Notes under the pieces: model-generated
What the model saw: only the letters and a program-made list of their open reading frames with translations
Told to the model about the DNA's origin: nothing
Databases searched by the model: none
Part shown: positions 33,536-63,543 of the stretch, piece after piece
How the letters are laid out: each line of letters starts with the position of its first letter
How positions within the stretch are numbered: the stretch's first letter is position 1
Assembly: GCA_964487295.1 (NCBI GenBank)
Contig: CAZAQL010000001.1
Span: forward strand, 13,091-77,090
DNA length: 64,000 nucleotides
Source: an uncultured bacterium
Lineage (GTDB): Bacteria > Joyebacterota > Joyebacteria > Joyebacterales > Joyebacteraceae
Direction: 5' to 3'
Program-made: the position numbers and the translations under genes

Positions 33536-33564
33536 TTGCTTTGCTCCGTAATCTGTGTTATCAT
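33536..33564 (+). promoter_or_regulatory. candidate sigma-70 promoter TTGCTT-N17-TATCAT in AT-rich island
   Basis: A local AT-rich stretch (cattgctttgctccgtaatctgtgttatcatttgaagttagg) in otherwise GC-rich DNA. AAGGAG 9 nt before ATG 33628. Confidence 0.4.
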
Positions 33565-33627
33565 TTGAAGTTAGGAGCAATCAAAGACGAGACGCCCGAT
33601 TTCCTCCTCGACAAGGAGATGGAGAGC

Positions 33628-36255
33628 ATGGTGCGTGTCCTGACAATCAGCCTTGCCGCGGCGCTGCTGGTCGCGGCCGCGGTCCCTGCGGCGGCCGGTC
33701 CCGAGGGGCCGTACGTGCAGGCCCGGGTCCAGTTCCGCGACGCCGCCGAGGCGGAGCGGTTCATGAGCCTGGACGAGCTCGACGTGATGAAGTACAAGCC
33801 CGGCGTCGGCGTTCAGCTCGTCACGAGCCACGAGCAGATCGAGGAGTTCCGGTCGCTCGGCTACGACGTCGTCATCGAGATCGATGACATGTCGAGCTTC
33901 TACGCCGCCCGGAACACGGCTCGCGGTTACGGTGACTTCTACACGTTCGACGAGACCGTGACCTTCATCAACTCGCTTCACGCGTCCTATCCGAACATCG
34001 TGAGCGAGCCCATCAGCATCGCGACGACGGAGCAGGGGAGGACGCTGTGGGCGCTCAAGATCTCCGACAACCCGGAGGTCGACGAGCTTGAGCCCGAGAT
34101 CCTTCTCGACGCGGTTCATCACGCGCGCGAGCCGATCACGATCAACGCCGTCCTCAACTACATGGACTGGCTGACGTCAAACTACGGGACGGACCCCGAG
34201 GCGACGTTCCTCGTAGACAACCGGGAGATCTGGTTCCTCCCGTGCGTCAACCCGGACGGCTATGTCTACAACGAGCAGACCGACCCCAACGGCGGCGGCA
34301 TGTGGCGCAAGAACCGCCGGGACAATGCCGGCAGCTCGTGTTACGGCGTCGACCCGAACCGCAACTACAGCTACCAGTGGGGCACGTCCGGCATCTCGTT
34401 CGACCCGTGCAGCGACATCTACTGCGGGACCCAGGCGTTCTCCGAGCCGGAGATCGCCGGCTACCGTGACTTCGTCGAGTCGCACGACTTCGTGACGAAC
34501 ATCACGTTCCACTCGGTCGCCGGAGCGATCCTGGTTCCGTGGAGCTACACGACCACATCCCCACCCGAGCCGGATAACACGATCTTCCGCGACATCGGCG
34601 ACATGATGGCGATGTCGAACGGCTACGAGGTCGGGACCGCGTACGAGACGATCAACTACACCTGCTCCGGCACCACCTGCGACTGGATGTACGGCGTGCA
34701 CGGGATCTGGTCGCTCTGCATCGAGGTGAGCGGCAGCGGCTTCTGGCCGCAGCAGAGCGAGATCGCCGGGCTCACGGCCGAGAACCTCTGGCCGCAGCAG
34801 TACATCAGCCGCATCGCGGGGGCCTACCTCGCGCTCAGCTCGACGCACTTCACCGGCGGAAACGGCGACCAGGAGCCGGACGCCGGCGAGACGCTCGACC
34901 TGACGATCACGGTCGAGAATCAGGGCGTCGTCGCGGACGCGTCGAACGTCCAGGTCACCCTGGTGACGGACGATCCGTACGTCGCGCTGCACGATGCGCA
35001 CACGACGCTCGGTTCGATCGCGGCGGGGTCCTCCACGCAGAACACGTTCGACCCGTTCTCCCTCTCGGTCGACGCGGGAACCCCGGACGGTCACGGTCTC
35101 GCCGTGACGCTCATCATCGAGGGCGACGGGCTGTACATGGAGGAGGAGCTGTCCTGGATGGTCGGCGAGCCGACGGTCGTGTTCTTCGACGACATGGAGA
35201 GCGGCACCGGCAACTGGGTCGAGAATGACGGCTACTGGGGTCTGACGACCTCGTCGTACCACTCGGCATCGAACAGCTACACGGACAGTCCGAACGGCAG
35301 CTACAGCAACTACCGGAACACGTGGATCGAGCTGGCGTCCCCGATCGACTTCTCCGCCGCGTCGGCTGCGGACCTCTCCTTCTGGCACCGCGTCTCCACG
35401 GAGGAGGACTACGACTTCTGCTACGTCGAGGTCTCGGACGACAACGGAGCGACGTGGAACCAGGTTGGCCCGAAGTACCACGGCAACAGCTACGGCTGGG
35501 ATCAGGTGGAGCTGTCGCTGAACGATTACGTCGGAACGGCGGGCTTCAAGCTCCGCTTCCGCTTCACGTCGGATACCTACGTGACCGCCGACGGATGGTA
35601 CGTGGACGACGTGACGATCAGCGGGCCGCCGACCGGCAACACGAAGCCGACCGCGCCGGTGCTGAACGACCCGCCCGATGGCGGCACGGTGTCGGTCTCC
35701 ACGCCGGAGCTCACGGTCACAAACGCCGTGGACAGCGATCCCGGCGACGTGCTCACGTACGGTTTCCGCGTCTACGACGACGAGTTCTGCACGAGCCTCG
35801 CCGCGTCGATCTCCGGCGTGGCCGAGGGCAGCGGAACGACGTCGTGGACCGTCGACTCCGGTCTCGCTGACGGCACGTACTACTGGCGGGCCTACGCGGA
35901 CGACGGGACCGAGCGAAGCCAGCTCATGGAGACCGCGTCCTTCACGGTGGAGAGCACGGGCGTCGACGAGGCCGTCGGCCGCCTCGCGCTCCATGCCGCG
36001 AGCCCGAACCCGTTTGCCGGTTCTGCGAGACTCTCGTTCTCGCTTCCCGAGCGAGCGGACGTCGAGCTCTCCGTCTACAGCGTTGACGGCAGACTGGTGC
36101 GAACGCTCGTATCCGGCGAGGCCGGTCCCGGCGTCATCGAGCTCACATGGGACGGTCGTGACAACGGCGGCCGCCGCGTGGGCAACGGCCTGTACTTCAT
36201 GCGCCTGACCGCGGCCGACGAGACGAGGCACGGCAAGCTCGTCATGCTCCGCTAG
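33628..36255 (+). CDS. secreted M14 zinc carboxypeptidase with MAM/jelly-roll-like and Fn3-like domains and Por/T9SS C-terminal sorting domain
   Basis: M14 zinc site HHAREP. Signal peptide. C-terminus ..SPNPFAGSARLSFSLPERADVELSVYSVDGRLVRTLVSGEAGPGVIELTWDGRDNGGRRVGNGLYFMRLTAADETRHGKLVMLR matches the T9SS CTD pattern. Confidence 0.85.
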   Translation: MVRVLTISLAAALLVAAAVPAAAGPEGPYVQARVQFRDAAEAERFMSLDELDVMKYKPGVGVQLVTSHEQIEEFRSLGYDVVIEIDDMSSFYAARNTARGYGDFYTFDETVTFINSLHASYPNIVSEPISIATTEQGRTLWALKISDNPEVDELEPEILLDAVHHAREPITINAVLNYMDWLTSNYGTDPEATFLVDNREIWFLPCVNPDGYVYNEQTDPNGGGMWRKNRRDNAGSSCYGVDPNRNYSYQWGTSGISFDPCSDIYCGTQAFSEPEIAGYRDFVESHDFVTNITFHSVAGAILVPWSYTTTSPPEPDNTIFRDIGDMMAMSNGYEVGTAYETINYTCSGTTCDWMYGVHGIWSLCIEVSGSGFWPQQSEIAGLTAENLWPQQYISRIAGAYLALSSTHFTGGNGDQEPDAGETLDLTITVENQGVVADASNVQVTLVTDDPYVALHDAHTTLGSIAAGSSTQNTFDPFSLSVDAGTPDGHGLAVTLIIEGDGLYMEEELSWMVGEPTVVFFDDMESGTGNWVENDGYWGLTTSSYHSASNSYTDSPNGSYSNYRNTWIELASPIDFSAASAADLSFWHRVSTEEDYDFCYVEVSDDNGATWNQVGPKYHGNSYGWDQVELSLNDYVGTAGFKLRFRFTSDTYVTADGWYVDDVTISGPPTGNTKPTAPVLNDPPDGGTVSVSTPELTVTNAVDSDPGDVLTYGFRVYDDEFCTSLAASISGVAEGSGTTSWTVDSGLADGTYYWRAYADDGTERSQLMETASFTVESTGVDEAVGRLALHAASPNPFAGSARLSFSLPERADVELSVYSVDGRLVRTLVSGEAGPGVIELTWDGRDNGGRRVGNGLYFMRLTAADETRHGKLVMLR

Positions 36256-36331
36256 CAACGACGCTCATCCCGCGCGGACAGTCTCGGTGGGCTGTCGGCC
36301 TCAGGGGAGCAAGCTGAATACGAACGATCGA

Positions 36332-36360
36332 CGAGGGGCGGCCGGCGTGGCCGCCCCTCG
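36332..36360 (+). terminator. GC hairpin (12-bp perfect stem CGAGGGGCGGCC/GGCCGCCCCTCG) after M14 gene
   Basis: Seen in the sequence ~75 nt after the stop. Confidence 0.5.
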
Positions 36361-36574
36361 GCACGTGATATGGTCAATGTGATCCGGATGTCAAGAGCGT
36401 GCAGGCCGCAACGCGCGCCCGGAGGCTGGGACGAGGAGCCGTCCCCGGCCCCGTTCGACTCCCGACATGCCCGCGCCGTGGGCCTTCCCGGAGCAGTTGC
36501 TGGAACACCCCTTGCATCACCATGTCCCTGGATGCTGTGTCCACAACCGGGGACCGAGTGACGGAGGGGAGTCG

Positions 36575-38902: not shown

Positions 38903-38985
38903 CCTGGACGGCGATTCCACTCCTTTGGCACGCCGCGCTGTGTCCCCTGGTTGGCCCGCTCCGCCGCTTCTCAGGCGCCGCTCCT

Positions 38986-39119
38986 CCGGAGCCATCCGGG
39001 GCGGGCGGCGTCTTGTCGCATTCGCGGCGAGCCCGTCAGAGCGGTCGGTGCCTCGTCGCATTCCCGGCGAACCCGTCTGGGCGGCTGGCACCTCGATGTG
39101 CCCACCCGGAGCCATCCGG
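38986..39119. repeat. composite repeat: two identical 14-bp palindromes (CCGGAGCCATCCGG) flanking a 40-bp direct repeat pair
   Basis: Palindromes at 38986-38999 and 39106-39119. Direct repeats GTCGCATTCGCGGCGAGCCCGTCAGAGCGGTCGGTGCCTC (39014-39053) and GTCGCATTCCCGGCGAACCCGTCTGGGCGGCTGGCACCTC (39055-39094). Confidence 0.8.
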
Positions 39120-39368
39120 ATCGAGCGTCGTTCCGTCTCTTCCCGCGGAATGACTGTCCCTCGGAAAGTTCTTGCGTCACCATTCAATTTTCGTTAGGAT
39201 ACTCATGAAGGCCCAAGCCGTGGTCGATTGTGGCTGAATCGAGTGTCAGTCGGGTACGATCACACGCGTCCTCACGGAGGATTCGAGAGCCCCCCCCGGT
39301 AGCGAACGCCGGAGGTCGGGGGCTGCCCCCCTCAGGATTCCGCGGCTTGCCGCTCCGTGAGGGTCGCA

Positions 39369-39386
39369 GGCTCCGATGCGGGAGCC
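39369..39386 (+). promoter_or_regulatory. palindrome GGCTCC-N6-GGAGCC immediately upstream of the TetR gene RBS (candidate operator)
   Basis: Perfect 6-bp inverted repeat, 17 nt before ATG 39403. TetR repressors typically bind palindromes overlapping their own promoter. Confidence 0.35.
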
Positions 39387-39402
39387 GGAGAAGGAGTCAT
39401 CC

Positions 39403-40008
39403 ATGGCACGGAAGAGAGTCGGGAACAAGCGCGAGAAGATCATCAACGCGGCGGCGAAGTTCTTCGGCGAGAAGGGCTACCACAACACGACGACCTCCGA
39501 GATCGCGGAGGCCGCCGGCGTGGCCGCCGGGACCATCTACATCTACTTCAACAGCAAGGAAGAGCTCATCGTCGCTGTCTTCGAGGAGTTCCTCGGGCGC
39601 CACATGGAGCGTCTCAGGGTGGGCGTCGAGTCCGTCGATGGTCCGATCGCGAGGATCCGCCGGCTCATGACGCTCGGACTCGAGCTCATGGAGAGCAACC
39701 CCGAGAGCGCGAGGATCTTCCTCTCGCAGCTCCGTCAGAGTACGACGATGATCAAGACGGTCGCCAAGCGCAGCAGCAGAGCCTACAAGGACATCATCGA
39801 GGCGGTGCTGACCGAGGGGATGACGAAGGGTGTCTTCCGTCCGATGGACACGGAGCACGTCGCCAGCATGCTCTTCGGCGCATACCAGATGACCGTGCTG
39901 GACTGGGTGGCGCGCGACTGCTCGTACTCACTCACGGCCAAATCGAAGGAGCTCGCTGATTTCGTGCTCATCGGTCTGGCCTGCGAGCTGCCGAAGGAGG
40001 ATTCGTAG
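39403..40008 (+). CDS. TetR/AcrR family transcriptional regulator
   Basis: HTH KREKIINAAAKFFGEKGYHNTTTSEIAEAAGVAAGTIYIYFNSKEEL. AAGGAG 7 nt upstream. Confidence 0.85.
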   Translation: MARKRVGNKREKIINAAAKFFGEKGYHNTTTSEIAEAAGVAAGTIYIYFNSKEELIVAVFEEFLGRHMERLRVGVESVDGPIARIRRLMTLGLELMESNPESARIFLSQLRQSTTMIKTVAKRSSRAYKDIIEAVLTEGMTKGVFRPMDTEHVASMLFGAYQMTVLDWVARDCSYSLTAKSKELADFVLIGLACELPKEDS

Positions 40009-40158
40009 GAACGAAGGCTCCCGGATGACGGGAGTCGCGGTGGTAACTGAAGTACTTCGGTTCGCCGTCCTGGGGAGTTGTCCGGATGGCGGATGGGCGG
40101 ATGCGGAGAAAGGCGCGGACATTCTCCGAACGGACGGCGACGCATGTGAGGTGATACC

Positions 40159-41670
40159 ATGCAGCCGTCACAGAGTCATCAGGACACGATCAAGGGGCAC
40201 CTGCTCCGCAAGCTGGGCGCCTGGGGAAGCAGGCGATCCGCGGACGACGTCAGGAAGCTCGTAAGCTGGTCGGCGAAGGGGCTTCCCGAAGGCGTCATAC
40301 GCGACCGGGTCGAGAGCTTCCGCAGGGCCCTGGACTCCTCGGCGGCGGCGAGCGAGCTCGTCGACGCGTTCTTCAACCTCGCACCGACCTGCCGCAGGCG
40401 CATCATCGAGAACCTGCTTGTCAACTGGGGCATTCTCGGCGGCCAGACCCGGTATCACATCATGGAGTCCGAGGGGTGGATGCCGCCGAACTTCGCGGTC
40501 ATAAGCCCCACCATGCGATGCAACCTCCGCTGCAGGGGGTGCTACGCCTTCGAGTACACGCGGGACGGAGAGCTCACGACCGAGGAGTTCGACGACGTCA
40601 TATCGCAGTGCAAGGCGCTCGGCATCCACTTCTTCACGATCTCCGGCGGCGAGCCGTTCGTCCGTGAGGACCTCCTCGATCTCATCGACCGTCACAGCGA
40701 CTCCCTCTTCCAGATATACACGAACGGCACGCTCATCGACGATGCTGTGGCGGACCGCCTCCTCGAGCTCGGCAACGCGATGCCGGCCATCAGCGTCGAG
40801 GGGTACGAGGAGGAGACCGACGCCCGGCGCGGCCCCGGCACGCACGCCCGCCTGACGGCCGCGATGGAACGGCTCAGAGAGCGCGATCTGCTGTTCGGGA
40901 TCTCCGTCACGGCGACGCGTCACAATCAGGAGATCCTGACGAGTGAGTCGTTCTACGATTCGTACATCGAGCGCGGCGCGCTCTTCGCCTGGATCTTCCA
41001 GTACATCCCGATCGGCCGCGAGCCGGATGTCGATCTCATGCCGACGCCGAGTCAGAGGACGGAGCTCAGGAGGTTCGTCCACGGCCTGCACCGGACGAAG
41101 CCGATCTTCATCGGGGACTTCTGGAACGACGGCGCCTACACGGGCGGCTGCATGGCCGGCGGCCGGATCTACTTCCACGTCACGTCGAGCGGCGGAGTGG
41201 AGCCCTGCGTCTTCGCCCACTTCTCCGTCGGCAACGTGCGCGAGCGTCCGCTGCGCGAGATCCTTCAGTGCGATTTCTTCAAGGCGATTCGCTACGCGCA
41301 GCCTTACCGTGAGAACAGGAACCTCTACACGCCCTGTATGATCATCGACAACCCCGAGGTGCTCCGCGATCTCGTCGCGGAGTTCCGCGTCCCGCCAAGT
41401 CACGCCGGCGCGGAGACCATCGTGGCCGATCCCCGGATCGTCGCGCACCTGGACGAATACTCCCGGGGGATCAGACGACTGGCCGACCCCGACTGGGAGC
41501 GTGATCATTGGGATGATCCGGACTCCGAGTGGTACCGCGATGGCGGCTATCGCCTCGAACGCCAGTGGGCGGACGAGCGCGAGGCGCTTGTTCGATGGAA
41601 CGAGGAGCGGGGAAGGAAGAGGAGCCGACGGTCCGGTGTGGAGGCCGCAGCGGGGCACGTGATCCGGTAG
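40159..41670 (+). CDS. radical SAM enzyme with SPASM/twitch-like auxiliary Cys cluster, ~110-aa N-terminal extension
   Basis: CNLRCRGCY (CxxxCxxC) and GGEPF motifs. Downstream GGCMAGGRIYFHVTSSGGVEPC..C SPASM-like pattern. GAGGTGA RBS. Confidence 0.75.
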   Translation: MQPSQSHQDTIKGHLLRKLGAWGSRRSADDVRKLVSWSAKGLPEGVIRDRVESFRRALDSSAAASELVDAFFNLAPTCRRRIIENLLVNWGILGGQTRYHIMESEGWMPPNFAVISPTMRCNLRCRGCYAFEYTRDGELTTEEFDDVISQCKALGIHFFTISGGEPFVREDLLDLIDRHSDSLFQIYTNGTLIDDAVADRLLELGNAMPAISVEGYEEETDARRGPGTHARLTAAMERLRERDLLFGISVTATRHNQEILTSESFYDSYIERGALFAWIFQYIPIGREPDVDLMPTPSQRTELRRFVHGLHRTKPIFIGDFWNDGAYTGGCMAGGRIYFHVTSSGGVEPCVFAHFSVGNVRERPLREILQCDFFKAIRYAQPYRENRNLYTPCMIIDNPEVLRDLVAEFRVPPSHAGAETIVADPRIVAHLDEYSRGIRRLADPDWERDHWDDPDSEWYRDGGYRLERQWADEREALVRWNEERGRKRSRRSGVEAAAGHVIR

Positions 41671-41699
41671 CGGCGGACCCGTGCGGCCGTAGACCAGCC

Positions 41700-43012: not shown

Positions 43013-43041
43013 TTGACCGGGGCCATATGTTGTGATAATAT
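43013..43041 (+). promoter_or_regulatory. near-consensus sigma-70 promoter TTGACC-N17-TAATAT with overlapping palindrome CCATAT-N9-ATATGG
   Basis: Sharp AT-rich island (ttgaccggggccatatgttgtgataatatggataattgg) 50 nt upstream of ATG 43090. GGAGG RBS. Confidence 0.55.
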
Positions 43042-43089: not shown

Positions 43090-44868
43090 ATGATGCGCAG
43101 ACTGACCGCTTTGCTCGTCCTCGTGCTTGTTCTCGTCTCGGCGCTCTCAGCCGCGGCGAAGCTTGAGCTGGCCGAGATGACGACGCGCGGCGCGATCCAG
43201 GACGCCACGGCGCGCGGCGACCTGGAGGAGGCACAGAAGTACCTCTACATGGCGTATTCGATCTATGCGCCCGAGAAGCTGCCGGCGGAGTATCGCGGCG
43301 GCCGGATCGACAAGTGCGGCGTCCCGACCATCGAGGCGATCGACGACGCGCTCCCCACGTTGCCCGAGGCTGTGGCGAACGAGATCCGCGGCCTGCGGGT
43401 TCGCCCGTCGTGTCAGACCTACATGGACACCGAGCATTTCCGCATCCACTACGATACGAGCGGCACGCACGCGATCCTCTCGACCGACTACCTCAACGCC
43501 ATCGCAACGGCTCTGGAGAACTGCTGGGACGAGGAGATCGACGTGCTCGGGTTCCGTCAGCCGCCGAGCGACGGCAGCGACGCGGACGGCGGAGGCGGCA
43601 GCGCGCACTACGACTTCTACGTCCAGAGCCTCTCGGGCGTTTACGGCTACTGCCAGCCGACGTTCTACGCCCCGGGCGGACCCGCGAACGACGCGACGAG
43701 CTTCTGCGTCATCGACAACGACTACGCGGGGTTCGGATACGTCGACCCGACAGACCCGATGAAGGTCACGGTCGCCCACGAGTTCTGTCACGGCCTTCAG
43801 GCCGCGCACGACGTGAACGAGGAGCTGTGGTACAAGGAGTGCACGTCGGTGTGGGTCGAGGAGATGGTCTACGACGAGATCAACGACTACACGCAGTACT
43901 GCAGCTCGTTCTTCTCGAGCCTCTGGCGCCCGCTGGAGTACGACGACAGCAACGTCCGCATCTACGGGTCGTTCGTCTGGAACATGTTCCTCACGGAGAA
44001 CATCAGCCCCAGCGTGGTCGTGGACAACTGGTGGCAGATGGAGGTCTCGGGAGAGTACACGGCCATGAACGCCGTGTTGACCACATACGGGACGTCGCTC
44101 GAGGAGCAGTTCCACGAGTTCAGCATCTGGAACTTCTTCACGAACGCGAGGAACGACGGCGCCCACTACGAGGAAGCCGCTTACCTGCCGCTCGCCTCGT
44201 TCCAGCGGACCTTCGGCATGTATCCGCTGACCGACGTGGGTCCGTACACGGCGACGCGTCCGGACCACATGGGTTCCAACTACATCAAGTTCTCGAACCC
44301 CGGGAACACGTGGACCGGTCTCCACCTCTCGTTCGACGGTCCTGCGCTCTACGAGCTGCCCTACTGGGCCGACGTCTGCGTCCGCGAGGACCAGGTCGGC
44401 GTGGGGCACACGAGCCATCTCGGCGAGATCACGCTGAACCCGTGGGGCAACGGCGACATGACGGTCGCTGACTGGGATCTCATGGACTACGCGTGCCTGA
44501 TCGTCACGAACGGCTGCACGACGACCGATGACATGGACTACCTCTTCAGCGCCGAGCAGGTCGACACCGGCGTCGAGGTCGGCTCTCACATCTTCGCGAT
44601 GAAGCCGGCCAGCCCGAATCCGTTCACGGCGCAGACCTCGATCGCGTACACCGTCCCCAACGGCGGAGGCGCCGTCGAGATGACGATCTACGACGTCAAC
44701 GGCAGAGCCGTCCGCACGCTCGTCGACGAGCAGATGATGCCCGGCGACCGTCTGGCGTACTGGGACGGCCTGGACAACAACGGCGAGAAGGTCGCGTCCG
44801 GCGTCTACTTCGCGCGCCTCAACGTCGACGGCCTGACGGCCTGCGGCAAGCTCGTCGTTCTGAAGTAA
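43090..44868 (+). CDS. secreted HEXXH zinc metallopeptidase-like protein with Por/T9SS C-terminal sorting domain
   Basis: Signal peptide MMRRLTALLVLVLVLVSALSAAA. HEFCH motif (TVAHEFCHGLQAAHD). C-terminus ..ASPNPFTAQTSIAYTVPNGGGAVEMTIYDVNGRAVRTLV..GVYFARLNVDGLTACGKLVVLK. Confidence 0.7.
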   Translation: MMRRLTALLVLVLVLVSALSAAAKLELAEMTTRGAIQDATARGDLEEAQKYLYMAYSIYAPEKLPAEYRGGRIDKCGVPTIEAIDDALPTLPEAVANEIRGLRVRPSCQTYMDTEHFRIHYDTSGTHAILSTDYLNAIATALENCWDEEIDVLGFRQPPSDGSDADGGGGSAHYDFYVQSLSGVYGYCQPTFYAPGGPANDATSFCVIDNDYAGFGYVDPTDPMKVTVAHEFCHGLQAAHDVNEELWYKECTSVWVEEMVYDEINDYTQYCSSFFSSLWRPLEYDDSNVRIYGSFVWNMFLTENISPSVVVDNWWQMEVSGEYTAMNAVLTTYGTSLEEQFHEFSIWNFFTNARNDGAHYEEAAYLPLASFQRTFGMYPLTDVGPYTATRPDHMGSNYIKFSNPGNTWTGLHLSFDGPALYELPYWADVCVREDQVGVGHTSHLGEITLNPWGNGDMTVADWDLMDYACLIVTNGCTTTDDMDYLFSAEQVDTGVEVGSHIFAMKPASPNPFTAQTSIAYTVPNGGGAVEMTIYDVNGRAVRTLVDEQMMPGDRLAYWDGLDNNGEKVASGVYFARLNVDGLTACGKLVVLK

Positions 44869-44895: not shown

Positions 44896-44927
44896 GAAGG
44901 GGCGGCCTCGTGCCGCCCCTTCTTTGG
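44896..44927 (+). terminator. intrinsic terminator (GAAGGGGCGGC/GCCGCCCCTTC stem, CTCGT loop, TTTGG tail)
   Basis: 27 nt after the stop of 43090..44868. Confidence 0.6.
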
Positions 44928-44988
44928 TGGTAGGCTCCTGAGGTGGTAACACGGGATCGCGGGGAGTCATGGATCGTGGAGGCGCACG

Positions 44989-48239: not shown

Positions 48240-48263
48240 GGGATGTCCGCCGCCGGCGGGCAG

Positions 48264-48360
48264 GCATGGGGAGTCCGTCGCCGGCGGGTACGCATGGGGA
48301 GTCCGCCGCCGGCGGGTGCGCATGGCGAGTCCGCTGCCGGCGAGTTCGCATGCGGTCGGG
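48264..48360. repeat. 28-bp tandem repeat x ~3.5 (GCATGGGGAGTCCGCCGCCGGCGGGTGC)
   Basis: Units at 48264-48291, 48292-48319 and 48320-48347, a degenerate fourth copy, and a partial copy starting at the stop codon (48237) of the upstream gene. Confidence 0.85.
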
Positions 48361-48692
48361 CGGCCTCCGATGGCCGAACGCTGCCGAATTCGATTGACAG
48401 AATTGCGCGAGTTCTGTATGTGTCCATTATGACACAGCTCAGGGGCTGCGGCTGACCGTTCCTGGGCGCCCCGACAGGGGTGAGGAGCCGCTCTTGGGCG
48501 GCTCCTGTCTGAGATTGGGAGGAGCGCGGCGCTTACCGTGTTCCTCCCGATTCGTCTGAGTGCGGCGCGGACCCTTCTCCTCCCGATTCGTCTGAGTGAG
48601 CGGCGGCGGCATGAGAAACGCCCCACCCGAGGGTGGGGCGTCTCCGTGGTGATCGGTCGTCCCTGGGCGGGTCATCCCGCCCGGAGCCGCTG

Positions 48693-49262
48693 TCAGCGAT
48701 ACAGCGCCTTGATCGCCGACCAGGATCTCTCCTCGACCGGCTGGCCCTCGCAGTCGCCGTCGTCGGCGAACTTGCCGACCCCGCCGTGCCAGAGAACGCA
48801 GTAGATGTGGACCTGATCGTCGCAGTCGACCACCCAGCGCGGGTAGTCGGGATGGTCACCGATGATGATGTCGCCTGGCGCTCCCAGGTAGAACAGGTGC
48901 ACCACGGCGATCGGGTACGGGTGCTGCCCGAGATCGATGCACTCGGTGGACGAGAGCGTGATGCCCTCCTCCCAGTTGCCGATGGAGAGGCCGCCGGGGA
49001 GGAGGCTCTCGTAGCTCGGCGGCGAGGACGTCCCGGGTGTCACGTCGAGCTGGAACGAGATGGTCGTGAAGCCCACGCCGCTGCCGAACATCTCGAGCAT
49101 GACGTAGGCATCCACGGACGTGTAGGCGTCGGGATAGGCCTGGGGCTGGTAGTTCCCCGGGTCGAAATCGATGTACATCGCGTCGAAGCCGACCGGGTTG
49201 CCCGCGGCCACGGCGGCGCCCAGCGACAGGAGCAGCACGACAGCCATAGCAGTACGCAGCAT
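48693..49262 (-). CDS. hypothetical secreted protein
   Basis: ATG 49262 with GGGAGGTGA RBS. Signal peptide MLRTAMAVVLLLSLGAAVAAG. 189 aa. No recognised domain. Confidence 0.55.
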   Translation of the reverse strand: MLRTAMAVVLLLSLGAAVAAGNPVGFDAMYIDFDPGNYQPQAYPDAYTSVDAYVMLEMFGSGVGFTTISFQLDVTPGTSSPPSYESLLPGGLSIGNWEEGITLSSTECIDLGQHPYPIAVVHLFYLGAPGDIIIGDHPDYPRWVVDCDDQVHIYCVLWHGGVGKFADDGDCEGQPVEERSWSAIKALYR

Positions 49263-49398
49263 GGTCACCTCCCTCGTTGAGGACGAGCACCGACCACCAG
49301 TCATCATTATACCACGCCCTGCCGGTCGATGCACGAGCCGCGCAGCGCCGGACCGGGTTCACCGGAAGAAGCCCCGCGGTCCCGCGATGCGGGGCGCG

Positions 49399-55116: not shown

Positions 55117-55994
55117 TCAGCCCGCCTTCTCCGCCGCCCGCATCTCCGTCGCCATGTGCCTGTGGTTCCACACAGCGGCCGCGATGATGAGCGCGATCCC
55201 CGCGAGGCTCAAGCGGTCGGGCACCTCTCCCCAGAGCACGAGCGCTATCACCCCGGCGAAGACGACGTGCGCGTAGTTGTAGATCGAGAGCTGCGACGCC
55301 TGGGCCTGATGGTAGCCGTACGTCAGCGCGAACTGGCCACTCGTGGCGAACACACCCGCCCCGAGCAGAGCCAGCCACTGCCGGGGATCGGGGTGGACGT
55401 ATGTGGCGATCGTCGGCCCGATGACCGCGACCACCGAGACGAGTGAGAACCAGAACACCACGGTGTAGGGCGGCAGCTTGCCCCTGAGCGAGCGGACGAC
55501 GGTGTACGCGCCGCCCGAGCACATCGCCGAGACCAGCCCGGCGACGGCCGGCATCGCCCGGTAATCGAGCTGTGGCTTGAGCACGAGCGCGGCGCCCAGA
55601 AAGGCAACGAGGAGCGCGGGAACGACGTGTCTTGAGAGTCGCTCGCCGAGAAACGCCACGGCGAAGATGGTGACGAAGAACGGCGAGAGCTTGTTGAGGA
55701 TCGTCGCGTCCGCGAGGTTCAGACGCCCGATGGCGTAGAAGTAGAGCAGCATCGCGGCGGTCCCGAACGCACCCCGAAGCAGCAGCACGGGCGCGAGGCG
55801 CCCCTGCGCGAACGGGTTCTCGCCGTACCTTGCCCCGACGGCCGCCATCGCCACGAGCGAGACGACGCTCCGGTAGAACACCTTCTCAACGACCGGGATG
55901 TCTCCGGCGAGCCTCACCATCACCCCGACGAGCGAGAACGAGACGGATGCCACGAGGATCGCCACCACGGCGCGCCCCGCGTTGTCGCGCGTCA
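55117..55994 (-). CDS. DMT superfamily (EamA-like) transporter
   Basis: 10-TM hydrophobic profile with two EamA-type halves. The start is placed at in-frame GTG 55994. The track ORF extends to 56079, overlapping the upstream gene by 55 nt with atypical N-terminal composition. Confidence 0.6.
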
Positions 55995-56024
55995 CGGGGT
56001 CGTGACCGATGCGCAAAGGGTGGC

Positions 56025-57371: not shown

Positions 57372-57528
57372 AGAGGACCGGAGCTTACCAGCGGGCCGGT
57401 CGCCGGGTCAATGCCGCCCGGTGCCGTGGGGAACCGCGCTTCGTGGAGCGCATCTAAATGGATGGTGAATAGCGCCGTGTCGCGGTCGCGTGGCGTCCTC
57501 GCGACGCGTTTCCCTCGCACTGCGCCTG

Positions 57529-57557
57529 TTGAAACGGGGCACAAATCATGCTATACT
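57529..57557 (+). promoter_or_regulatory. near-consensus sigma-70 promoter TTGAAA-N17-TATACT in AT-rich island
   Basis: ttgaaacggggcacaaatcatgctatactacagtctgtcaagaatttag. Leaves a ~120-nt leader before ATG 57682. Confidence 0.5.
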
Positions 57558-57681
57558 ACAGTCTGTCAAGAATTTAGCGACCGGTTGCCCCCGCGAACGG
57601 TAGACGGGGGCGTATACCCGTGACGCGGGTGCGCGTCGTGCGGACGACGCGCGCGTCCCGTCGGTGAGGAGTGTGACTCGA

Positions 57682-58728
57682 ATGCGAGGAACGAACAGGC
57701 CAACAAGCGTTCTCATCACGGCGCTTCTCGTACTCGTCGCCATGGCGCTTCCGCTCATCTCCTTCGCGGAGGTGAACCGGGAGGTCTCCCCGGAGGAGCA
57801 GGCGAGGATCGACGCGATCAACGACCGGATCACGGAGATGGGGTACGACTGGGTGGCGGGACCGACGAACGTCTCGCACCTGTCGCCCGAGCAGAAGCGA
57901 AACCGGCTCGGCGGCGAGATCCCGCCGGACATCCTCGCGGAGTTCGAGGCCCTCGAGCCCGATCCTGAGATCCTCCGCATGACGTTCCGCTCGAGTTTCG
58001 ACTGGCGTGACTTCGGCGGCGTCACCCCGGCCAAGGACCAGGCGGACTGCGGCTCATGCTGGGCGTTCGGCGCGGCCGGCGCCACGGAGGCGCACATCCG
58101 GATCGCCGAGGGCGTCATCCTCGACGTCTCCGAGCAGCAGATCATTGACTGCAACGGACAGGGCTCCGACTGCGACGGCGGCTGGGCCGGCGATGCCTAC
58201 GCCGTTCACTACAGCCCCGGCGCCGTGAGCGAGGACGACATCCCCTACGTTGCGGACGACAACCAGAGCTGCCGTGAGCGGCGGTACGACAAGATCGCCA
58301 TCATCGACGGCAGCGCGAACATCTCGAACAACGTCTCCACGCTCAAGTACAACCTCGAGACGTACGGTCCGCTCTCGGTCGGCATGTGCGTCTACGACGA
58401 CTTCTACAACTACACGGGCGGGTGCTACGAGAATCCGGGCACCGACTGGACGAACCACGTGGTTCTGCTCGTCGGCTGGGACGACGCGATGTGCGGGGGC
58501 GAGGGCGCGTGGCTCTGCAAGAACAGCTGGGGGCAGGACTTCGGCGACAACGGCTTCTTCTGGATCAAGTACGGGACCTGTCGCATCGGCACCGGCGCGA
58601 TGCGCCCGGTCAACGCTCACACTCCGAAGACCGTCCTGGTGCCAGACGAGTACGCGTCGATCCAGACCGCGATCGACAACTCGGAGCGCGGCGATGTCAT
58701 CAGGATCGCGGAGGGAACCTACAACTAG
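57682..58728 (+). CDS. secreted papain-like (C1A) cysteine peptidase; N-terminal segment of a gene interrupted by in-frame TAG at 58726-58728
   Basis: GAGGAG RBS 10 nt before ATG 57682. Signal peptide. QADCGSCWAFG active-site Cys. Oxyanion Q upstream. NSWG and WIKYG near the His/Asn region. The reading frame continues beyond the TAG. Confidence 0.75.
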   Translation: MRGTNRPTSVLITALLVLVAMALPLISFAEVNREVSPEEQARIDAINDRITEMGYDWVAGPTNVSHLSPEQKRNRLGGEIPPDILAEFEALEPDPEILRMTFRSSFDWRDFGGVTPAKDQADCGSCWAFGAAGATEAHIRIAEGVILDVSEQQIIDCNGQGSDCDGGWAGDAYAVHYSPGAVSEDDIPYVADDNQSCRERRYDKIAIIDGSANISNNVSTLKYNLETYGPLSVGMCVYDDFYNYTGGCYENPGTDWTNHVVLLVGWDDAMCGGEGAWLCKNSWGQDFGDNGFFWIKYGTCRIGTGAMRPVNAHTPKTVLVPDEYASIQTAIDNSERGDVIRIAEGTYN

Positions 58729-58809
58729 ACGGTCGTTCTCGACGACTACCGGTCGCTGATCGGCGGGTACGACCCGACCTTCACCTACCGGGACCCCGAG
58801 GCCTACCCG

Positions 58810-61323
58810 GTGGTGATCGACGCCGGTGGCGCAGGTCACGGCATCTACGTCGAGGAGAGCGAGAACATCCTGATCGACGGTGTGAAGGTGACCGGAGCGA
58901 CGGGTGTCTCGTCCGGCATCTACGTGAAGGCGACGACGGCGACCATCCAGAACGTCGAGGTCTACGGCTGCTGGCGCGGTCTCACCGCGACGTACGGCAG
59001 TTCGGGTCCCGAGGGTGGGCTCATCATCGAGCTGTCGAACTTCCACGACAACGACGTGGCCGGCGTTTTCCTGAACGACGTGCCGAACGCAGACGTCAGC
59101 CTCTACTACGTCGCCTCGTACGACAACGGCGGACCGGGCATCTACTCCTACTCGTCGGCGACGGACATCGAGAACTGCACGATCGCCGGGAACGGGCTCG
59201 ACGGCGGCATCGACATGCGCTCCTCGACCGGCAACGTCATCATGAACAACATCATCGCGTCGAACACGGGCCACGGCATCGTCTGCACGAGCGCCACGCC
59301 CGACATCTCATACAACGACGTCTGGGACAATTCACTGGGCGGATACAGCGGCTGCTCGGCCGGCACGGGCGACATCTCCGTCGACCCGGTCTTCTGTGAC
59401 GCCGCCGGCGGCGTCTACTCGGTCCACGCCACTTCGCCGACCCTGACCCAGGGCGATGGCGGAGGCCCGATGGGGGCGCTCGGCATCGGCTGTCCCGTGG
59501 GTCCGCAGAACCTCGAGATCGCGCAGAGCGGCGCGTCGCTGGAACTCACGTGGGACGAGCCGCCGGCCTCCCGCGCGACCGTCGACTACTACATCGTCTA
59601 CCGCGACACGGTCGCCGTCCCGGCGCAGCAGATCGCGACGGTGGACGCGCCGGCGACCTCCTTCACCGACATCACCATCCCGGCCTGTCAGCTCAGCTAC
59701 TACCGGGTCTCCGCCGTCGATGACGGCGGCCTCGAGGGCGCGCCCTCGAACAAGGTGTTCGGCGAGCTGTGCTACGATGGTCCGACGGCGCTCACGGCGG
59801 GCTTCACCGAGGGCGCGAACGAGCTCAGCTGGTCGGCCGGAGCGGGACCGATCGACGAGTACGTCGTGATGCGGGGCAACGTCCTCGCGGAGCCCGAGTC
59901 GCTCGCGAGCGTCTCGAGCGCGGAGACTGAGTTCGTCGACGTCTGGACGACCGACTGCCCGCGCGACAACTACCGCTACGAGATCGTGCCCGTCTACGAC
60001 ACGGGCTGGTACGGGCAGCCGTCGGCGCAGGTCTCCGTCGATCCGGCTCCGTCGCCGCCCGAGGGCATATCCATCGGGTGGGACATCGACGACATCGTGC
60101 TGAGCTGGGACTGGAACTGCGAGAGCGACTTCCGTCGCTACTGGGTCTACCGCGACACGATCCCGTTCTCCGATCCGATCGACTCTGACCGGCTCGTGGG
60201 CTTCACGCCCGACACGACGCACGTCGACGAGGGTATGAACCCGAACAAGACCTGGTTCTACCGGATCGCGGCGAGCGACGCATCCTCGCAGAAGAGCGTC
60301 TACTCCGAGCTCGTCTGGCTGGGCACAGGCGTGACGATCGACGTGCCGTCGACCTACTCGACCATCCAGTCGGCCATCAACGCGGCGAGCCCCATCGACA
60401 CGGTGCTCGTGGCGGCCGGCACCTACAACGAGAACATCACGCTGAAGGACGGCGTGCTCGTCATGAGCGCGGACGGACCGGCGACCACGGTCATCCAGTC
60501 CTCGACCGGCAACGTCGTCTCCGCGACCGGCCTCGGCGACCTGACGCTTCTGCGGGGGTTCACGATCGACGGACAAGGCTCGGCGTCGAACGGGCTGCAG
60601 ATCCTGGACTCGGTGCTTCGCATCGACGACTGCTTGGTGACGGGCTGCAACAACGGCATGAACTTCACGTTCGGAGCGAAGCCCACCGTCACCGCGTCGA
60701 CGCTGACGTCCTGTCAGTACGGAGCCGCGGTCGGCGACTCGTCGGTACCGTTCTTCTCGGGCTGCACGTTCAGCGACAACTCGTTCGCGGGCGTCTACAA
60801 TCAGGGCGTTCCCGGACCGCAGATCGGCCGGACGCTCGGGGACGCCTGTGACTTCGGGAACAACGCGTACTTCCACGTGTTCAACCTCGCCGCGTCGGAG
60901 CTCGACGCCGAGTACAACTACTGGGGAGACATCTGCGTCGAGGAGGCCTGGTTCTACGGACTCGTCGACTACATCCCGTGGACGGATTCCGGACACACGG
61001 AGGTCTACACGGAGTGTCCCAACAGCGTGCCCGACGGGGACGGGGGGAAGGCGTTCGTGACACACAACTTCCCGAACCCGTTCAACCCGTCGACAGCGAT
61101 CCAGTACGCGCTCGGCCGGTCGGGTCCGGTCTCGCTCTCCATCTACGACCTGCGCGGACGGCTCGTCCGCACGCTCGTCAACGAGGAGCAGGCGGCCGGG
61201 GACTACACGGTCGTGTGGCAGGGGAGGGACGACGAGGGTCGGCAGCTCGGCTCCGGCGTCTACTTCTACCGCATCGACGCTCCGGGCATCTCTGAGCGCC
61301 GGAAGATGGTCATGTTGAAGTAG
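58810..61323 (+). CDS. right-handed beta-helix / Fn3-like repeats / Por-T9SS C-terminal sorting domain; downstream segment of the interrupted C1 peptidase gene
   Basis: Same frame as 57682..58728, with no stop between 58729 and 61323. The track start is an internal GTG. C-terminus HNFPNPFNPSTAIQYALGRSGPVSLSIYDLRGRLVRTLV..GVYFYRIDAPGISERRKMVMLK. Confidence 0.65.
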   Translation: MVIDAGGAGHGIYVEESENILIDGVKVTGATGVSSGIYVKATTATIQNVEVYGCWRGLTATYGSSGPEGGLIIELSNFHDNDVAGVFLNDVPNADVSLYYVASYDNGGPGIYSYSSATDIENCTIAGNGLDGGIDMRSSTGNVIMNNIIASNTGHGIVCTSATPDISYNDVWDNSLGGYSGCSAGTGDISVDPVFCDAAGGVYSVHATSPTLTQGDGGGPMGALGIGCPVGPQNLEIAQSGASLELTWDEPPASRATVDYYIVYRDTVAVPAQQIATVDAPATSFTDITIPACQLSYYRVSAVDDGGLEGAPSNKVFGELCYDGPTALTAGFTEGANELSWSAGAGPIDEYVVMRGNVLAEPESLASVSSAETEFVDVWTTDCPRDNYRYEIVPVYDTGWYGQPSAQVSVDPAPSPPEGISIGWDIDDIVLSWDWNCESDFRRYWVYRDTIPFSDPIDSDRLVGFTPDTTHVDEGMNPNKTWFYRIAASDASSQKSVYSELVWLGTGVTIDVPSTYSTIQSAINAASPIDTVLVAAGTYNENITLKDGVLVMSADGPATTVIQSSTGNVVSATGLGDLTLLRGFTIDGQGSASNGLQILDSVLRIDDCLVTGCNNGMNFTFGAKPTVTASTLTSCQYGAAVGDSSVPFFSGCTFSDNSFAGVYNQGVPGPQIGRTLGDACDFGNNAYFHVFNLAASELDAEYNYWGDICVEEAWFYGLVDYIPWTDSGHTEVYTECPNSVPDGDGGKAFVTHNFPNPFNPSTAIQYALGRSGPVSLSIYDLRGRLVRTLVNEEQAAGDYTVVWQGRDDEGRQLGSGVYFYRIDAPGISERRKMVMLK

Positions 61324-61377
61324 AGACCGCCAGGTCGCCTGCGACGCGGCGCGGCCGAGCGCGGCACGAGGATCTTC

Positions 61378-61410
61378 GAAGGGGACCGGTTTCCACCGGT
61401 CCCCTTCTGC
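61378..61410 (+). terminator. intrinsic terminator (13-bp perfect stem GAAGGGGACCGGT/ACCGGTCCCCTTC, TTCC loop)
   Basis: 55 nt after the stop at 61323. Followed by TGCGTTCAAT. Confidence 0.6.
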
Positions 61411-61479
61411 GTTCAATAGAGCGGAGAGGTCCGCGCGGCCGGCATGACGGCGCGTTCACAGCATACTGATTGAAAGTCA

Positions 61480-61508
61480 TTGACGACCTGCCGTCATTTG
61501 GGTATTAT
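61480..61508 (+). promoter_or_regulatory. near-consensus sigma-70 promoter TTGACG-N17-TATTAT with TGACG-N6-CGTCA palindrome over the -35
   Basis: AT-rich island (tgattgaaagtcattgacgacctgccgtcatttgggtattatcgtattgttg). ~125-nt leader before ATG 61633. Confidence 0.5.
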
Positions 61509-61632
61509 CGTATTGTTGTCGGACTACCAATCATCAACGAACAGAGTTGCTGCCAGCGGAAGGGTCGGCGGCCAGGTCGCGTTGTCGCGCCTGTCCGTGT
61601 CGCTCGTCCGCGCCATCACGGAGGAGCCGACG

Positions 61633-63543
61633 ATGCGCACACGTTACCGCTTCGCGCTGCTTGCGGTTCTCGCCCTTCTGGTCCCGGCGAGCGCCCTCGC
61701 GCAGACCCCGCCCCCGAACTACGACCTCTACTGGGTCGACACGAACAGCGACCAGGTGTGGGCGTACGTCGATACGGCCGGCACGATCGTGAATCCCACG
61801 CCCATGTTCAGCGGCGTCACTTCGATGGCCGTCGCTCAGGACGGCGGCGTACTCATCGGCAAGCAGCTCGGCATCGACCGTCTGGATCCCGTCACGGGGA
61901 CCACGACGACGCTCGACCCGTACTCGTACAACATCGGTGAGCTCTGCGAGGACGGCGAGAGCGGCGACATATTCTGGATCTCGGGCACCGGGTACTCGGA
62001 GCTCTGGGTGTTGCCCTCCGGCACCAGCACGAGCCTCATGGCGACCACTTTCACAGACCAGCCGCTCGACATCGACGTCATACCGAACGGTGAGCGCGCC
62101 GGGAACCTCCTCATACTCCTCGACTCGTACGGAGTCGACCCGAGGCTCGTCGAGCTTGAGCGCGACGGCCTGAACGAGTTCACGATCGTCGACACGGTCG
62201 CGACGTTCTACGAGCAGTGCCCGCTCGCCTTCTCGTTCCTCCCGAACGGGCACATCATCGTCCTCGATTGCGTCGACGGGATGTGGGAGGTCGAGTACGA
62301 CGGGTCCATGACGCAGTTCGGGACCTTCTCGGACGACGGCGTCACCGACATCTCCGTCGGGGCCGACGGAACCGTCTACGTCATGGGAGAGGCCTACGCA
62401 TCAGTCTTCCGCTTCAACTCCTTCGGCCAGCAGCTGTTCCCGTCGATCTTCGGTCCGCTCCTCGGAGGCCCCATCGAGGCCGTCGGGTTCGTCCCGACGC
62501 CGCCGGGGTCGAACGTCGTCGTGAACCCGTTGCTCGGGGTCGACGTGCTCTTCGAGGAGATCACCGACGGCGGGTACACGTCGGCCGAGACCACCGAGAG
62601 CGACAGCCGCACGAGTCCCGGAGGCAACGACCTGCCGGCGTACGCCCAGCCGCCGGGTTCTCGGAGCGATTTCACCTACATCGCGGCGACGACGAGCGCC
62701 GTCTACGAGAACCTTATCCAGGTGGACGTCTACCTGCCGGGAAGCCGCTTCTTCGTCGCGCAGGGGACGGGGGGCGAGTTCCACGACGTGACGGTCGTCG
62801 GGAGCATCGAGGACGCGCGCGGGGTCATCTCGCGGTTCAACTCGCCCGTGCAGATCCCGACGGGCGACGGCACACGCATCGACGGCCCGACCGAGTTCGT
62901 CCTCGTTGAGGACACGAGGGCCCTCCCGGATGTCGTGGACGCGAAATTTGACAGACTCATCGATCTGCTGAACGACGGCGAGCACTCGCCGTCGGCGACG
63001 ATGGACCTCGTGTACGCGAGCCGGTATCTCCTGAGGCGCGCCATGACGGCCGAGCGCATCTACGACGGGGGCAGCGTGCTCGGCGCCATCGCCGAACTGG
63101 CCATGATGAACGATGATATCCGTTCGTTCGCGGGCAAGGGGGTCCCCAATTCGTCAGAGGATCCGCTCGGGAACGTCGCCGGTGAGATGCTGTCGCGCTC
63201 GAAGACGCTGATGTTCAGTCTCGGCCTCATGGTCACGCCGCTCCGCGGAGCGGGCGTCGAAGCGGACGGGGCGACGCTCGCCCTGGCGACGCCGAACCCC
63301 GTGCGCGGCGAGTGTCGGATGCAGCTCACGGGACCGGCCGGGACTCGCGCGCTGGCGGCCATCTACACCGTGGGCGGCCGGCTCGTGCGGACGCTCTACG
63401 AGGGCGAACTGGCGACGGGCTCGCAGGAGCTCGTGTGGAACGGCACGGACGACGCGGGCCGCCGCGTCGCTTCGGGCGTGTACCTTACCAGGGCAATCGC
63501 CGGTTCGAGGGTCTCGACCGGGAAGCTCGTATACGTCAGGTAG
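61633..63543 (+). CDS. secreted beta-propeller-like protein with Por/T9SS C-terminal sorting domain
   Basis: GGAGGAG RBS. Signal peptide MRTRYRFALLAVLALLVPASALA. C-terminus ..PNPVRGECRMQLTGPAGTRALAAIYTVGGRLVRTLYEGELATGSQELVWNGTDDAGRRVASGVYLTRAIAGSRVSTGKLVYVR. Confidence 0.65.
   Translation: MRTRYRFALLAVLALLVPASALAQTPPPNYDLYWVDTNSDQVWAYVDTAGTIVNPTPMFSGVTSMAVAQDGGVLIGKQLGIDRLDPVTGTTTTLDPYSYNIGELCEDGESGDIFWISGTGYSELWVLPSGTSTSLMATTFTDQPLDIDVIPNGERAGNLLILLDSYGVDPRLVELERDGLNEFTIVDTVATFYEQCPLAFSFLPNGHIIVLDCVDGMWEVEYDGSMTQFGTFSDDGVTDISVGADGTVYVMGEAYASVFRFNSFGQQLFPSIFGPLLGGPIEAVGFVPTPPGSNVVVNPLLGVDVLFEEITDGGYTSAETTESDSRTSPGGNDLPAYAQPPGSRSDFTYIAATTSAVYENLIQVDVYLPGSRFFVAQGTGGEFHDVTVVGSIEDARGVISRFNSPVQIPTGDGTRIDGPTEFVLVEDTRALPDVVDAKFDRLIDLLNDGEHSPSATMDLVYASRYLLRRAMTAERIYDGGSVLGAIAELAMMNDDIRSFAGKGVPNSSEDPLGNVAGEMLSRSKTLMFSLGLMVTPLRGAGVEADGATLALATPNPVRGECRMQLTGPAGTRALAAIYTVGGRLVRTLYEGELATGSQELVWNGTDDAGRRVASGVYLTRAIAGSRVSTGKLVYVR

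Follow-up and report, generated by a model that had tools for sequence, protein, structure and literature searches.

Do four genes for secreted proteins that lie within one 64,000-nucleotide (nt) stretch of DNA from an uncultured bacterium (contig CAZAQL010000001.1 of assembly GCA_964487295.1; "the window" below means this whole stretch) form a single regulon, and do the C-terminal domains (CTDs) of their products mean that the organism carries a type IX secretion system (T9SS)? A first description made from the letters alone, here called the sequence-only reading, had answered yes to both, seeing four hydrolases under coherent regulation, each behind an AT-rich, near-consensus promoter. We favor a different account, to which we would give a probability of about 0.7. 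In it the four genes are independent monocistronic units, each served by a promoter of the housekeeping sigma-70 family and each encoding a protein with a Sec signal and a CTD of the T9SS type A, FlgD-Ig-like kind.

A local hidden Markov model (HMM) made from the four tails and run over all six frames of the window returned exactly four open reading frames (ORFs) bearing the domain, with ends at 36255, 44868, 61323, and 63543, and these are the four genes that had been singled out for their T9SS-like CTD pattern. One of them proves to be interrupted, so that five coding segments are listed.

33628..36255, + strand: M14 carboxypeptidase cargo gene, with signal peptide, Peptidase_M14, CARDB, and MAM-like domain; CTD at about 35989-36252
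43090..44868, + strand: MXAN_6640-family HExxH metalloprotease cargo gene (NF045524); CTD at about 44602-44865
57682..58728, + strand: papain-family C1 peptidase part (PF00112, 178 bits), closed by a premature in-frame TAG at 58726-58728
58729..61323, + strand: remainder of the same ancestral C1 gene, with beta-helix repeats, fn3, and CTD at about 61057-61320
61633..63543, + strand: DUF6689 cargo gene, with signal peptide, six-bladed beta-propeller, beta-sandwich, four-helix bundle, and CTD at about 63277-63540

Three of the products are peptidases, and the fourth is a propeller protein. The M14 protein matches PF00246 with 229.6 bits and has the HxxE zinc motif in the form HARE; the HExxH protein matches NF045524 with 208 bits (cutoff 140) over the whole 290-position model, carries HEFCH at residue 230, and opens with the signal peptide MMRRLTALLVLVLVLVSALSAAA; the C1 part has its catalytic motifs CGSCW and NHVV in place, and the remainder of that gene scores 79 bits against Beta_helix. 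The fourth protein matches PF20396 (DUF6689) with 38.9 bits, and Pfam, an AlphaFold (AF2) model, and Foldseek together gave no recognizable catalytic domain in it, which leaves three hydrolases where four had been announced. The model, built on 18 homologs, has a mean pLDDT (predicted local distance difference test score) of 78. Its all-beta region 30-285 resembles six-bladed NHL, YWTD, and Pizza6 propellers in Foldseek, with template-modeling (TM) scores of 0.6-0.78 when normalized by the target, and secondary structure and fold matches add a beta-sandwich, a four-helix bundle, and the CTD. PorZ was considered as an ortholog of this protein and rejected: the PorZ model NF052228, whose cutoff is 260 bits, reaches 19.5 and does so over the CTD only, and the protein has a single propeller. 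Read by eye from the translations, a typical Sec signal peptide starts all four proteins.

The C1 gene had been taken for one frame running from 57682 to 61323, which the TAG at 58726-58728 (context GTYN*TVVL) contradicts. Five distinct orthologs, in the related loci L015, L022, L026, L027, and L078, carry GAG (Glu) instead, and each of them runs through as a single uninterrupted polypeptide; in L078 the C1/beta-helix gene was called as a single 1213-residue product. Recoding of TAG was considered and rejected, because TAG terminates 27 of the 41 genes called in the window and is thus a genuine stop at 58726. The interruption, to judge from the orthologs, goes back either to a G-to-T change that made a stop codon or to a sequencing error, and one cargo gene in this genome is accordingly either inactivated or mis-sequenced. 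Were it real, the change would leave the peptidase domain with its signal peptide but without the beta-helix and the export domain. As an observation on its own, the stop codons of the 41 called genes (27 TAG, 12 TGA, and 1 TAA) are dominated by TAG, which is unusual at 67% GC, where TGA is normally the main stop.

Upstream of each gene, the four promoter strings that the sequence-only reading had proposed lie exactly where it put them, at 33536, 43013, 57529, and 61480.

33536..33564, + strand: M14 promoter, TTGCTT (3/6)-17-TATCAT, with TGT-extended -10
43013..43041, + strand: HExxH promoter, TTGACC-17-TAATAT, with TGTGA extension
57529..57557, + strand: C1 promoter, TTGAAA-17-TATACT, with TG extension
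61480..61508, + strand: DUF6689 promoter, TTGACG-17-TATTAT, with the conserved CTGATTGAAAGTCA (61466-61479) just 5' of it

The spacer is 17 nt in every cargo promoter. A consensus scanner returned 6-7 promoter-like sites in each 20 kb where shuffled sequence yields 1.3 +/- 1.3, an enrichment of about five-fold, and three of the four cargo promoters pass it. The M14 site falls below the threshold because its -35 hexamer, TTGCTT, agrees with TTGACA at only three of six positions, which corrects the description "near-consensus" for this promoter. A TGn-extended -10 compensates, and the offsetting of a weak -35 by a TG extension is familiar from the extended -10 promoters of Escherichia coli and Gram-positive bacteria. 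The pattern TTG-N17-TGnTAnnAT has just two exact matches in the window, where 0.05 were expected, and the M14 promoter is one of the two. On our own scoring scale the promoters of the four cargo genes reach 12.3-13.8, and random 250-nt segments have a 95th percentile of 10.2 and a 99th percentile of 12.6.

What carries the case for function is conservation. The M14 block cATTGmTTc-N8-GTAATyTGTGnTATnAT is kept in 13 non-redundant orthologous upstream regions, the HExxH block cTTGACC..CTATGTTGTGaTAnaAT in 11 orthologous loci, and the DUF6689 block ACTGAttGAAArTCATTGACGA-N13-GGGTATTAT in L026, L027, L028, L029, L030, and L078; the C1 block is near-identical from the -35 to about +56 in L026, L027, and L078. 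Mean pairwise identity among orthologs is 0.68-0.76 within the promoter block and 0.27-0.51 in the 36 nt 5' of it, and the conservation spans orthologs of 44-83% protein identity. Because the stretch from -35 to -10 is kept in every family while the flanks have diverged, the four blocks are very probably real promoters of the sigma-70 type, held by purifying selection in the orthologs.

The leaders that follow would be about 57, 42, 118, and 118 nt long (M14, HExxH, C1, and DUF6689, respectively) if the RNA polymerase holoenzyme starts about 7 nt past the -10 box. The sequence-only reading had spoken of long leaders of 50-125 nt; the implied range is 42-118 nt, and these are not unusually long leaders. 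A Shine-Dalgarno (SD) sequence of the GGAG type lies 5-11 nt 5' of the ATG in all four, and the SD AAGGAG of the M14 gene and its ATG at 33628 are retained in its orthologs. The fold z-scores of the four leaders are -2.0, -2.6, -2.1, and -0.6, the C1 value being -2.06. The C1 leader deserves its own line.

57564..57681, + strand: C1 leader of ~118 nt, of which the first ~57 nt, as far as 57619, belong to the conserved block 57529-57619, with a hairpin at 57587-57611

This block is almost invariant in four sequences, those of L026, L027, and L078 included, whose proteins are about 80% identical and whose upstream flank cannot be aligned. Its hairpin reads GCCCCCGCGArCGGUAGACGGGGGC, and in a predicted consensus fold UACCC..GAC would reach over a variable hairpin to pair with the SD region, in a helix that would sequester the SD, the four sequences being near-identical and offering essentially no covariation. 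Rfam gave no match over the whole window at the gathering threshold or in the leader regions at an E-value threshold. The C1 leader was also considered as host to a conserved upstream ORF, an idea rejected on reading the aligned upstream sequences, in which the frame and length of the ORF vary between orthologs.

A strong GC-rich hairpin lies 3' of each of the four genes.

36333..36359, + strand: GC-rich hairpin after the M14 gene, a probable terminator (RNAfold and pattern), with an equivalent after the orthologs
44896..44922, + strand: HExxH-gene terminator hairpin; just past it TGGTAGGCT (44928-44936), an extended -10-like box of the next gene
61378..61407, + strand: terminator hairpin after the C1/beta-helix gene (RNAfold/pattern)
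63575..63603, + strand: DUF6689-gene terminator hairpin; just past it TGGTAGGCT (63610-63618)

The HExxH hairpin and its box are kept in orthologous loci. By its layout, then, each cargo gene is a self-contained and apparently monocistronic unit of promoter, leader, SD, ORF, and hairpin. A side observation concerns the junctions themselves: the identical TGGTAGGCT box stands a few bases past the HExxH and DUF6689 hairpins, ahead of the genes for a 161-aa conserved protein and a Ser/Thr kinase, respectively, as a compact terminator-promoter junction.

How far do these promoters differ from those of other genes in the window? Their AT-rich setting is as striking as had been described. In a window of 67.2% GC they occupy the four most AT-rich intergenic patches, with 50-nt GC minima of 0.36-0.38 that are the lowest among 31 upstream regions; the next independent region, that of the TetR gene, is at 0.40, and most others are at 0.44 or above. 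The further statement that housekeeping genes lack such islands holds for the AT-rich context, which is peculiar to the cargo genes, and does not hold for the hexamers, since equally good ones precede NifU (TTGACG-17-TATCAT), TrpRS, a DUF2007 gene, unk47, a metallophosphatase/CBM9 gene (TTGACA-17-TAGCAT), and the first ATP-binding cassette (ABC) transporter gene, ABC1 (TTGACA-18-TAGAAT, 11/12). The hexamers of NifU, TrpRS, ABC1, the metallophosphatase, and others are set in GC-rich DNA and not in AT-rich patches, and orthologs keep the metallophosphatase and TetR promoters as well. The distinctive trait of the four cargo promoters is their AT-richness. The islands would consist of the core promoter, with an AT-rich spacer and usually a TGTG-extended -10, together with the first 20-30 transcribed bases, which makes them conspicuous in 67% GC DNA, and as sequences they point to strong, largely self-sufficient promoters and not to a common operator.

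An objection to assigning these promoters to the ordinary housekeeping repertoire comes from comparing groups of genes. Taken over the window plus 29 related loci, GC minima are lower (p about 1e-11) and promoter scores higher (p about 1e-8) at cargo genes than at other genes, p-values that are inflated because the same four gene families recur through orthology. Among strong promoters, 88% of the cargo set has a TG extension against 39% of the others, and the cargo promoters always have a 17-nt spacer, a weaker -35, and much lower GC; the non-cargo strong promoters of the same genomes tend to TTGACA/TAGnAT. This contrast counts against a purely housekeeping account and leaves room for a dedicated factor. 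The four genes could have promoters of a class of their own, which an alternative group 1 or group 2 sigma factor would read or which would depend strictly on an extended -10, and be co-ordinated by promoter type. Such a class would explain the degenerate -35 hexamers (TTGATT, TTGCTT), the invariant 17-nt spacer, the pattern TGTGnTATnAT, and the low GC, in genomes whose other strong promoters are TTGACA-N16-18-TAGnAT in GC-rich context, and the boxes TGTGGTATCAT and CGTGGTATAAT also occur 5' of two small signal-peptide proteins (24598, 49306). Against it, the contrast comes down to four families repeated by orthology, the DUF6689 promoter has a good -35 and no TG extension, and every element falls within the normal range of housekeeping sigma-70, with no sigma gene that could be linked to the set. 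In unrelated metagenome loci, cargo and other genes did not differ (p = 0.16). We regard a separate class as unlikely.

A true regulon, in which one transcription factor would bind a common operator at all four promoters and switch the secreted proteins on together, is what the sequence-only reading had put forward. The promoters are indeed alike in style, being AT-rich with a 17-nt spacer and mostly a TG-extended -10, and candidate regulators lie nearby: a TetR gene (39403), an extracytoplasmic function (ECF) sigma gene (about 23376), an FHA-GAF-SpoIIE phosphatase gene (53431), and a Ser/Thr kinase gene (from 63625). The one further element that any of them share is CTGA-N8-TCATTG at the M14 promoter (33521-33538) and CTGA-N7-TCATTG at the DUF6689 promoter (61466-61482), which abuts the -35 in both, as would be expected of an activator site, and whose ends are kept in orthologs while its spacer varies. 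In the window it occurs at these two promoters only, against 0.07 expected, the pattern having been derived from those same sequences.

The operator search does not bear a regulon out. No 7-mer or 9-mer is common to the four upstream regions, no k-mer of 7-10 nt recurs in them at a consistent position, and the 8-mers and 10-mers that are shared when mismatches are tolerated lie at inconsistent positions and are nearly all present in other intergenic regions too. Spacer and leader sequences are conserved family by family and not across families. Neither the HExxH nor the C1 family has the CTGA element, and its M14 and DUF6689 versions are not spaced alike, the former being one base longer; it was rejected as an independent marker of a regulon, the three other matches in the fetched loci being chance occurrences inside unrelated coding DNA. 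Nor do islands precede further CTD genes of related loci (L015 7387-9855 and L023 4597-7401). With the CTGA element confined to two families and no common operator, a four-gene regulon is unsupported and in our judgment quite unlikely, and co-regulation of two members, or co-ordination via promoter class, is possible.

The second half of the question concerns the CTD, and here our preferred account of T9SS type A-class cargo, of a FlgD-Ig-like subtype, begins from position and architecture. The domain sits at the extreme C-terminus of all four ORFs, the HMM match running through the last residue, and ends in K-x-V-x-L-K/R. The T9SS type A model TIGR04183 (cutoff 23 bits) is passed by three of the four, the M14 protein (30.4), the HExxH protein (26.0), and the beta-helix part of the C1 gene (33.4), and FlgD_ig (PF13860) exceeds its gathering score in all four, at 32.9-45.1 bits (M14 45.1, C1-gene remainder 42.3, and DUF6689 32.9). 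A profile of 25 CTDs matched, in the PDB, PorU (6za2, 1.8e-7), RgpB (5hfs, 5.8e-4), PorZ (5m11, 1.2e-3), and a Flavobacterium CTD (8glj_D, 7.7e-3). The names that NCBI gives to proteins among 2,397 homologous tails include "T9SS type A sorting domain-containing protein," a name also given by NCBI to a Candidatus Eisenbacteria DUF6689 homolog, and precomputed Pfam matches list both FlgD_ig and Por_Secre_tail on most of these tails. The cargo proteins were also considered as FlgD itself and rejected: their match to the FlgD equivalog models is confined to the Ig-like part and scores 22-31 bits where the cutoffs are 230-383, and Pfam shows no other FlgD domain.

Several results weigh on the other side. 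The DUF6689 protein has no TIGR04183 match at E <= 0.01; Pfam Por_Secre_tail (PF18962) stays below its gathering score of 27 in two proteins (19.4 and 21.9 bits) and gives nothing in the other two; and the 25-CTD profile fits FlgD Ig-like domains (E 2e-11) better than the solved T9SS CTDs (1.8e-7 to 8e-3). Searches of all called genes with Pfam and NCBIfam returned no T9SS core gene in the 64-kb window, and none occurs in the roughly 10 kb annotated past the window's right end on an orthologous contig. One match to PorW/SprE in the window (32 bits against a cutoff of 250) was set aside as tetratricopeptide repeat (TPR) similarity only. In the open literature searched, no link of Eisenbacteria, Effluviviacota, or Latescibacterota with T9SS was found, and the supplement of PMC13271369 is without gld, por, or spr terms; reviews attribute the system to Bacteroidota or the Fibrobacteres-Chlorobi-Bacteroidetes (FCB) superphylum (PMC11205867, PMC12421860, PMC5445135).

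From these results one could build a reading in which the CTDs are FlgD-type Ig domains for binding or anchoring, no export signals at all, in an organism without T9SS. The top PDB and Pfam matches are FlgD Ig-like domains, and neither the window and its annotated flank nor the literature offered a T9SS gene or a link between clade and system. We give this a slim chance, since the domain lies at the extreme C-terminus with the same K-x-V-x-L-K/R ending in four of four, three proteins pass TIGR04183, the profile reaches PorU, PorZ, RgpB, and the Flavobacterium CTD, all four proteins combine Sec signals with the architectures of secreted enzymes, the FlgD N-terminal domain is absent, and the FlgD equivalog scores are far under their cutoffs. 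The T9SS cargo that the sequence-only reading saw in these proteins is supported, as a type A-class assignment in the FlgD-Ig-like subtype with a Sec signal peptide at one end and a sorting domain at the other, and a T9SS in the organism is plausible from its cargo genes. The proteins would cross the inner membrane via Sec, after which, on the pattern of established T9SS cargo, a type IX-like machinery would recognize the CTD, export the proteins across the outer membrane, and release them or attach them to the surface, where the three peptidases may degrade extracellular protein. Peptidases are a dominant class of T9SS cargo (PMC11205867, PMC9936825).

A bolder combination of these ideas would have the FlgD-Ig-type CTDs sorted by a route different from the canonical Bacteroidota T9SS, or by a strongly divergent form of that system, with a subset of the cargo under dedicated, conserved, AT-rich promoters with TGTG-extended -10 boxes that are read by a specialized sigma-70-family factor or helped by a class II-type activator at the CTGA-N7/8-TCA element; its prospects seem to us equally slim. 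That the hexamers are non-functional chance matches in AT-rich intergenic DNA is very improbable, for although the scans rest on consensus matches only and single random 250-nt segments score up to 12.8, the blocks are conserved against diverged flanks in four of four families, they lie in the right orientation and at the right distance from SD-preceded starts, and such sites are five-fold enriched over shuffles.

The host, as far as its sequence tells, is an Eisenbacteria-like, GC-rich, uncultivated bacterium of a candidate phylum related to the FCB group. Metagenome-assembled genomes (MAGs) labeled Candidatus Eisenbacteria, "Effluviviaceae," or plain "bacterium" carry M14 orthologs of 58-83% identity, with synteny from the ECF sigma gene through to the gene after the FG-GAP protein, and the EamA, flavin adenine dinucleotide (FAD) oxidoreductase, C1/beta-helix, DUF6689, and Ser/Thr kinase genes are syntenic in metagenome contigs L026 and L027 and NCBI contig JAPEKS010000003.1. 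Published phylogenies take Eisenbacteria as the sister lineage of Joyebacterota, a phylum of the FCB superphylum, have it share a root with Latescibacterota and Effluviviacota, and place it beside the FCB-superphylum phyla (PMC13271369, PMC11323493).

The gene order is not fixed throughout. In the more distant relatives L015 (12832-16317) and L022 (about 2879-6238), the C1/beta-helix/CTD gene lies directly 3' of the M14 gene and not beside DUF6689, and in L015 the M14 gene itself follows another CTD gene across a 118-nt gap in which no promoter of cargo quality was found. A radical S-adenosylmethionine (SAM)/SPASM gene (40159-41670), between the TetR and M50 protease genes, occurs in only some syntenic loci (L010, L015, and L019) and is missing from the closest relatives, an insertion or deletion in otherwise kept synteny. 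No tRNA or transfer-messenger RNA (tmRNA) gene was found in the window.

Other intergenic features were seen along the way. Ahead of the TetR gene (39403-40008) lie a promoter conserved as TTGCrT-17-TAGrAT and a leader of ~200 nt (feature span 39172-39251), and a related motif TGAAyCGrGwrTCAGTC (39235-39251), possibly a TetR operator or a leader element, recurs at variable distance in most TetR orthologs. The extended -10 boxes TGTGGTATCAT (24598-24608) and CGTGGTATAAT (49306-49316, minus strand) precede the genes of two small signal-peptide proteins, 24648-25169 and 48693-49262 (minus strand), without Pfam match; the latter ends in SWSAIKALYR, a C-terminal motif shared with an L008 protein. 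An orphan promoter-like site on the + strand, TTGACA-17-TATGTG (48394-48422), lies in an AT-rich patch with no ORF downstream and is followed by the direct repeat CCTCCCGATTCGTCTGAGTG (48543, 48579) and by a hairpin at 48620-48639 facing the convergent gene, which makes 48394-48650 a candidate small RNA. GC-rich tandem repeats at 33443-33517, 39001-39095, 48240-48352, 25236-25372, 28763-28921, and 15868-16014 (periods 11, 40, 28, 53, 23, and 27 nt) are mostly intergenic by position, several of them just 5' of promoter-like sites, and a repeat akin to them also lies 5' of the metallophosphatase ortholog in L001.

Even if our reading is right, there is little here that is new in kind: the NCBI pipeline already annotates T9SS-type cargo automatically in such MAGs, and the expression signals are classical. 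What the locus adds is a first comparative, conservation-backed view of how genes of an uncultivated candidate phylum are equipped with promoters, leaders, and terminators, signals of a sort that aid gene calling, start-site prediction, and heterologous expression of the lineage's enzymes. It also presents typical T9SS cargo in a lineage never tied to T9SS in the literature searched, and the machinery can be checked for in public MAGs.

Set beside known systems, the four proteins resemble T9SS type A cargo (TIGR04183/PF18962), such as RgpB and CPG70 of Porphyromonas gingivalis and the Flavobacterium peptidases, in their Sec signal, enzyme domain or domains, Ig-like accessory domains, and C-terminal beta-sandwich of ~85 residues with a basic/hydrophobic last strand. 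CPG70 is itself an M14 carboxypeptidase exported as T9SS cargo. They are unlike Bacteroidota cargo in that the host is Eisenbacteria-like, that the CTD subtype scores higher with FlgD_ig than with Por_Secre_tail, and that they are known here from cargo genes alone; Bacteroidota expression signals also differ from the canonical -35/-10 and SD that these genes use. The HExxH protein is like the MXAN_6640 family over the full NF045524 model and is here fused to a T9SS-type CTD instead of standing in a myxobacterial context. The DUF6689 protein shares with PorZ of P. gingivalis (PDB 5m11, its top Foldseek match by E-value) the pairing of propeller and CTD, but PorZ has two propellers, this protein has one six-bladed propeller with a beta-sandwich and a four-helix bundle, and the TM score to 5m11 is only 0.13-0.15. 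In their expression signals, finally, the genes recall the extended -10 (TGn or "-16 TRTG") sigma-70-type promoters of E. coli and Gram-positive bacteria, with TTGnnn, a 17-nt spacer, and TGTGnTAnnAT, transposed to a candidate phylum of 67% GC whose other promoters tend to TTGACA/TAGnAT.

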